Both the position numbers and the translations under genes were made by a program. Positions 14,258 to 14,446 of a DNA stretch of 64,000 bases are shown in pieces. Within the stretch, counting starts at the first letter, position 1, and each line of letters opens with the position of its first letter. Under the pieces are notes generated by a model, which did no database searches, had not been told where the DNA came from, and saw only the letters and a program-made list of their open reading frames with translations. Origin of the DNA: Raja brachyura (taxonomy: Eukaryota); contig OY740785.1 of NCBI GenBank assembly GCA_963514005.1, positions 20,398,001 through 20,462,000 on the forward strand, read 5' to 3'.

Positions 14258-14330
14258 TCCTCGTTAGTATAGTGATTAGATCCCTGCCTGTCACGCGGGA
14301 GGCCGGGATTCAATTCCTGATGAGGAGCCA
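14258..14330 (+). tRNA. Degenerate tRNA-Asp(GTC) copy with genomically encoded 3' CCA, in the BEL 3' UTR
   Basis: TCCTCGTTAGTATAGTGATTAGATCCCTGCCTGTCACGCGGGAGGCCGGGATTCAATTCCTGATGAGGAG-CCA aligns to vertebrate tRNA-Asp. Acceptor stem TCCTCGT/ATGAGGA, anticodon GTC at 14290-14292, two 1-nt deletions. A T8 run follows at 14349-14356. Confidence 0.8.
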
Positions 14331-14446
14331 AGGGGTTCAATTCCCTGATTTTTTTTGCTTTGATATATGTTAAGCCTTCATGTCTACTTTTTTGATGTTA
14401 ATTAATAATTGTCTCGTTATATACTCAGAACAATTAGGGGCCGGTG

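Follow-up and report, generated by a model that had tools for sequence, protein, structure and literature searches.

A tRNA-Asp copy with encoded CCA in the 3' UTR of a BEL/Pao retrotransposon family of Raja brachyura

The tRNA-Asp copy and its host element

The window analyzed here is a 64,000-nt stretch of Raja brachyura DNA (contig OY740785.1, positions 20,398,001 to 20,462,000 of the forward strand). It contains a truncated BEL/Pao element whose 3' UTR holds a copy of the host tRNA-Asp(GTC) with CCA at its end, followed by a repeat of the T arm (Table 1). This arrangement had been described in an initial annotation of the window and is confirmed in the sequence. The layout of landmarks given there also holds, with four corrections: the stop of the pol remnant is at 14227-14229, the 5' LTR is missing, the 3' LTR is interrupted at 14479, and the T8 run lies outside the tRNA insert.

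Table 1. Features of the BEL/Pao element and its tRNA insert (window coordinates)
Feature	Position	Strand	Basis
Internal region of a 5'-truncated, pol-deleted BEL/Pao element, subfamily A (non-autonomous)	11519..14446	+	85-91% identity to most family copies
pol C-terminus remnant (end of DUF5641 region), one internal stop	14095..14229	+	Translation, by-eye comparison with DUF5641 loci
T6 run native to the BEL 3' UTR, where the insert lies (final T = tRNA base 1)	14253..14258	+	T6 in empty sisters, 17/19 scored
Decayed copy of mature host tRNA-Asp(GTC), bases 1-72 and CCA	14258..14330	+	Rfam, host-gene alignment
Second, partial copy of the same tRNA, T arm (~bases 48-65), 18 nt	14331..14348	+	Comparison with host gene; junction at at least 86 sites
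T8, second copy of the native T-run	14349..14356	+	Sister copies 5-7 pyrimidines, empty copies T6
Remaining 3' UTR and PPT region, common to tRNA-less relatives	14357..14446	+	
3' LTR start, first letters TGTAGTGG	14447..14478	+	Family LTR ~486 bp, TG..CA
Unrelated younger repeat breaking the 3' LTR	14479..14848	.	Separate matches, 96-98% identity
3' LTR continuation, end approximate	14849..14935	+	Motif 14886-14893 complementary to bases after the family's 5' LTR

The tRNA body (14258-14327) matches Rfam RF00005 with 33.1 bits (E 3e-4; gathering score 29), and CCA follows at 14328-14330. Compared to a host gene of the same genome (L074), the window copy carries nine differences, 7 substitutions and 2 one-base deletions. 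The damage includes G18A, G52A in the B box and the two deletions, and the copy lacks the intact cloverleaf and A and B boxes of a functional tRNA gene. ARAGORN at default settings called no tRNA in the whole window. Minimum-energy folding, applied to the host and window tRNAs, missed the proper cloverleaf already in the host gene and carries no weight here.

Around the insert, a 30-aa piece of the translated pol remnant has no match in Pfam. The 370-bp repeat inside the 3' LTR replaces about 100 bp of it and is 96-98% identical to copies elsewhere. By eye, the flanks of the PPT (14380-14460 and the same region in relatives) are complementary and co-vary between families, which suggests that a hairpin is conserved around it. 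Far upstream, positions 1867-5724 of the forward strand contain an open frame of 1285 aa with the look, by eye, of an L1/Tx1-type LINE ORF2.

The element in the window has no 5' LTR, because homology to the family begins only at about 11519. Compared to a full-length relative it is 71-80% identical and has two shared deletions. Most subfamily A copies have two pol deletions relative to that relative, and the larger one is present in all of them, so subfamily A is non-autonomous. Frames in the window copy itself gave only sub-threshold matches to Pfam. A full-length relative, L131, has the BEL-type pol domain order (PR-RT-RH-IN), with weak protease and RT matches below the cut-off, Integrase_H2C2 (E 3e-9) and DUF5641 (E 6e-29). 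Peptidase_A17 was found only in a more distant BEL family.

Complete copies of the family are 5-7 kb long and are bounded by two direct LTRs of about 486 bp with TG..CA ends. Among the 12 copies with both ends, the 5-bp target duplication is perfect in 7, has one mismatch in 4 and is absent in 1. LTR-LTR K2P distances are 0.036-0.055 in subfamily B (5 copies) and 0.064-0.123 in subfamily A (12 copies), and B is therefore the younger of the two. A separate young BEL family, represented by L150 and about 20 identically scoring matches, has long open frames, near-identical LTRs and no tRNA insert.

Gain of the tRNA

The tRNA is located at the same position in 20 of 20 family loci, 13 of them independent when an 8-copy duplicated array is counted once. 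As the initial annotation had supposed, it belongs to the family and is no one-off. The junction between CCA and the T-arm repeat occurs at a minimum of 86 sites in the genome at up to 2 mismatches, whereas a reversed control pattern had 0. Element copies lying about 40-60 kb apart on single contigs (L005-L012 and L279-L281) were also seen; such arrays reflect segmental or tandem duplication and make copy counts too high. Contigs from the sequencing runs of other organisms contain both filled and empty forms, and some of them bridge the UTR and the tRNA.

The insert extends exactly from base 1 to CCA, is in sense orientation and has no flanks of a host gene. This upholds the earlier suggestion that its source was a mature, CCA-bearing tRNA. 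When a sister copy was used to search the genome (2.7 Gb), the host tRNA-Asp(GTC) genes were found in clusters, and none of the host-type tRNA-Asp loci printed, dispersed or clustered, is followed by CCA. No tRNA turned up in 20 additional BEL loci belonging to other families and to distant relatives (ARAGORN on all 20, Rfam on 15). Some sister copies do qualify as having the intact cloverleaf and boxes that the window copy lacks. The possibility that the slot holds a different tRNA in some copies was rejected: the tRNA-Glu(TTC) called in L139 and L140 by relaxed ARAGORN is a one-base change in a decayed tRNA-Asp. The other relaxed calls among 30 loci had no Rfam confirmation where this was tested (20 of the 30).

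Thirty loci were chosen by their match to the UTR that follows the insert: 22 are filled, 6 are empty and 2 are disrupted. A query built on the empty site gave 40 scored matches, and most of the 30 fetched have the pol deletions of subfamily A. Distant relatives have the same UTR and no tRNA. The empty site consists of T6 in 17 of 19 scored copies. In filled copies, T5 and base 1 of the tRNA precede the insert and 5-7 pyrimidines follow it, so that a T-run stands on both sides. The T-run had been proposed as a dedicated terminator, but it is already present in the empty site. It could serve Pol III as a terminator in an incidental role at most.

Two trees, built from copies of this genome only, place the gain. 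The first uses the 3' sequence with the insert removed and holds 73 rows from 123 classified non-redundant regions (bootstrap values are rough, and the automatic labels empty-close and empty-far imperfect). Here a clade (100/97) of all 45 tRNA rows plus a single disrupted copy is nested in a grade of empty copies. Because close empty sisters hold T6 and the tRNA clade nests among them, the T-run is native to the UTR and the tRNA was likely gained once. Later clean deletion as the origin of the empty sites is rejected: next to the site these copies resemble the outgroup in their bases, and both trees place them below the tRNA clade. In the protease-region tree (7 duplicate rows dropped), subfamily A again falls inside the empty sisters (100/99), while the full-length lineage stands as its own clade (100/98), which forces two changes. 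This separation points to recombination. Net divergence between A and B is 0.08-0.11 at the 3' end, compared to 0.20-0.24 in pol; it is also low in gag (0.11). The simplest reading is that the tRNA was gained in the deleted lineage, and that the 3' end would then have moved into the full-length lineage by recombination.

The explanation we favor, with moderate confidence, is a single event in which the BEL reverse transcriptase jumped onto mature tRNA-Asp (in two jumps), followed by recombination into the full-length lineage and carriage of the tRNA as a passenger without benefit. A packaged mature tRNA-Asp(GTC) with its CCA would have been the target. During minus-strand synthesis, the enzyme would exit the U-run and copy the T arm. 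It would then realign on the CCA end, copy the entire tRNA to base 1 and re-enter the U-run, which would leave a U-run on both sides of the insert. The pol-deleted lineage carrying the tRNA would then amplify, and its 3' end was probably handed to the full-length lineage by recombination. Later source elements would lose the T arm, the B box and CCA, yet keep spreading.

A LINE reverse transcriptase or templated repair may instead have pasted the tRNA into a chromosomal empty element that later became a source, with the same passenger history. We regard this as unlikely, but it is the strongest competitor. Junctions of the same type could come from a LINE enzyme, and the flanking T-runs resemble a 5-nt target duplication. 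Precursor-type dispersed tRNA-Asp copies also exist in this genome: L072, L073 and L093 (~1493-1582) have in common a short 5' leader and a 3' trailer with a T-run at its end, within unrelated flanks, and two of them stand directly before sequence that we take to be CR1-like. These three are probably retrocopies of a single precursor tRNA and are similar to small-RNA/LINE chimeras. Against a LINE origin, the insert has neither poly(A) nor a LINE tail. Its T-rich strand is the sense strand of the tRNA, whereas in the usual L1 geometry the T-rich strand is the opposite one. Cellular tRNAs reverse-transcribed without a poly(A) tail have precedents in tailless tRNA retropseudogenes (PMC5322556) and tRNA/LINE-1 chimeras (bioRxiv 2025.02.02.635956). 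As far as the accessible text of these two sources goes, such copies are made by L1 at single loci and are truncated and often antisense, the tailless ones at the 3' end and the chimeras mostly as antisense halves. Here the tRNA is full length, ends in CCA, is in sense orientation and was amplified within an LTR element.

Decay of the tRNA

Among the near-complete non-redundant copies (n = 35), CCA directly follows base 72 in 28, and the remaining 7 deviate from this by a single base. Changes common to these copies are G68A (18), C60T (11), G18A (8), G43T (7) and C55T (5). CpG sites diverge from the host tRNA by 0.142 and all other sites by 0.071. An intact B box remains in 17 of 35 subfamily A copies but in only 1 of 24 copies of subfamily B, the youngest and full-length one. 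In B, a single change in bases 1-40 is fixed in most copies (T7G, 15/24), whereas bases 41-75 have about seven shared changes. The post hoc binomial value for this skew is about 0.02, and neutrality is therefore not clean. Three full-length copies outside B (L138, L307 and L308) lack the 3' acceptor strand as well as CCA, owing to collapse between the two T-arm repeats.

A T:A pair in the acceptor stem had been read as a sign of maintained pairing. The pair (T4:A68) results from G68A. It is found in 18 of the 35 near-complete copies, is absent from the other 17 and persists in subfamily B despite the broken cloverleaf there. Other shared changes break a pair or hit conserved bases, and maintained pairing is not supported. 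G43T breaks the C27-G43 pair (7/35), and T-loop C55 is altered in 5 of 35 A copies and 22 of 24 B copies. Another idea, that selection kept the tRNA intact along the stem of subfamily A, was also rejected. The tRNA remained identical to the host's over a protease-region stem of 0.059, but this stem fell to 0.024 when empty sisters were added, and such a short stem leaves little time for the tRNA to change.

One B-type insertion, at L045 and its duplicates (L045, L052 and L053; 1857-1931), has an intact tRNA-Asp and CCA ahead of the decayed 3' half, which also speaks against plain neutrality. It would stem either from recombination with subfamily A or from another jump onto the host tRNA. Separately, nine A copies still have a B box and an A-box stretch identical to the host's, and could be transcribable.

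The captured gene might have given its carriers a temporary advantage as a Pol III unit, a TFIIIC insulator or an RNA-processing site. At capture, both promoter boxes (A and B) matched the host exactly, with a T-run within 20 nt, the tRNA-bearing 3' end reached the full-length lineage, and the 5' half of the tRNA is well preserved in B. Yet empty sisters with the same deletions amplified as well, shared changes strike G18, the C27-G43 pair and C55, and the three full-length copies outside B do without the 3' acceptor strand and CCA. Taken together, an advantage of this kind is improbable. The earlier suggestion of a cassette that the family needs is not supported either, given that the empty sisters and the subfamily with the broken tRNA both amplified.

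A one-time copying accident followed by hitchhiking is thus likely, because tRNA-less sisters spread too and younger copies carry the tRNA broken. Against this passenger history stands the persistence of the insert over several source lineages and its entry into the full-length one.

Priming and comparison with known systems

According to the ICTV profile, belpaovirids prime from a host tRNA, through an 18-nt PBS that pairs with tRNA-Arg or tRNA-Gly at the 3' end (PMC8742986). The family studied here has no such site next to its 5' LTR. Directly after the intact 5' LTRs, TTAAGT is found in 14 of 14 copies and TGG in none, so there is no primer site for tRNA-Asp. In 5 of 5 copies tested, the 30 nt after the 5' LTR are complementary to tRNA-Asp over only 5-6 nt. 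Across 11 ten-kb loci, a complement anchored on CCA reaches at most 7 nt anywhere and never adjoins the 5' LTR. The host tRNA set retrieved comprised Lys, Gln, Cys, Thr, Asp and Met. At the sequence level, 3'-end priming by tRNA-Asp is refuted. The idea in the initial annotation that the element encodes its own primer, for which a full tRNA with encoded CCA within an LTR element and the tRNA priming of belpaovirids would speak, keeps next to no probability against these counts and against a start motif that matches the LTR instead and is of the same kind in the empty sister L301.

The start motif pairs with the element's own LTR over 10 nt in subfamily B and 8 nt in subfamily A. Against 1000 shuffles, the LTR complement was 11 nt in L150 (1 shuffle), 10 nt in L141 (1), 8 nt in L022 (34) and 8 nt in L037 (54). 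Other families have complements of 11 nt (L347), 10 nt (L357), 9 nt (L348) and 8 nt (L346). Among 10 loci of other families with an LTR pair, 4 pass at 11 of 300 shuffles or better and 6 fail, some with misplaced boundaries. The position of the complement is 150-211 nt inside the LTR; in each of four LTRs examined it precedes AATAAA. At a variable base, 17 of 24 copies agree cleanly with their LTR partner, 4 are mixed and 3 are discordant; alone this agreement has little weight, given that the copies are related and both states fall on a CpG.

The bases after the 5' LTR thus show the pattern of Tf1-type self-priming, a complement to the LTR and no tRNA PBS. As a lead, about five BEL families resemble elements that prime in this way, with 8-11 nt of complementarity and first internal bases other than TGG. 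A more far-reaching proposal, which we put forward tentatively and consider rather doubtful, is that the BEL/Pao elements here prime without tRNA from their own LTR transcript. The captured tRNA-Asp would then be the fossil of an enzyme jumping onto a non-primer tRNA, and an intact tRNA in the UTR would later be selected against in protein-coding genomes, where it would cause the RNA to be cut or transcribed by Pol III.

In the open-access literature searched, nothing was found on internal tRNA or self-priming in BEL elements; Repbase or Dfam entries, or the supplements of PMC10886601 and PMC3118150, may already contain the family. PBS and tRNA are mentioned 0 times in PMC3118150, PMC554778 and PMC8556966, and the accessible part of PMC8672886 contained nothing relevant.

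If the tRNA was captured as we propose, one genome displays the capture of a mature tRNA by an LTR element through its empty site, filled site, recombinants and decay series. There is also a caution for annotation. Through such elements, pseudo-tRNA-Asp loci with CCA are spread over dozens of sites, and ARAGORN or Rfam accepts some of them.

Small RNAs within LTR elements are already known, and the internal tRNA-Asp in this BEL family is real and most likely a passenger. The salmon swim bladder sarcoma virus reportedly has a tRNA-like sequence between pol and env. It would resemble the family described here as a fish retroelement with an internal tRNA-derived stretch after pol, and differs as a retrovirus with another tRNA.

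Compared to Belpaoviridae (PMC8742986), the family shares TG..CA LTRs, 5-bp target duplications and, in full-length relatives, the PR-RT-IN order with DUF5641. It differs in having no 18-nt primer site for a tRNA 3' end and in its internal tRNA copy, and the window subfamily is without parts of pol. The Cassandra, Helenus and Ajax TRIMs, the TRIMp3 group, are likewise non-autonomous LTR elements with small-RNA-derived sequence. As described in the accessible portion of Kojima 2024 (PMC10886601), they are shorter than 1 kb, contain this sequence in both LTRs and have conserved promoter boxes. In contrast, the elements here are 5-7 kb long, have one internal copy downstream of pol, some 120 nt ahead of the 3' LTR, and their B box decays.

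The self-priming lead, if true, is the weightier result. Tf1/Sushi, Tcn1 and TAR self-prime from bases after the 5' LTR that are complementary to their own LTR, according to the accessible parts of PMC6317226 and PMC3601003, and the BEL elements here are alike in that these bases pair with the LTR and not with a tRNA. Those elements belong to the Gypsy and Copia groups, for which self-priming is described, whereas a tRNA primer is given for BEL (PMC8742986), and in the BEL elements studied here the complement is located 150-211 nt inside the LTR.
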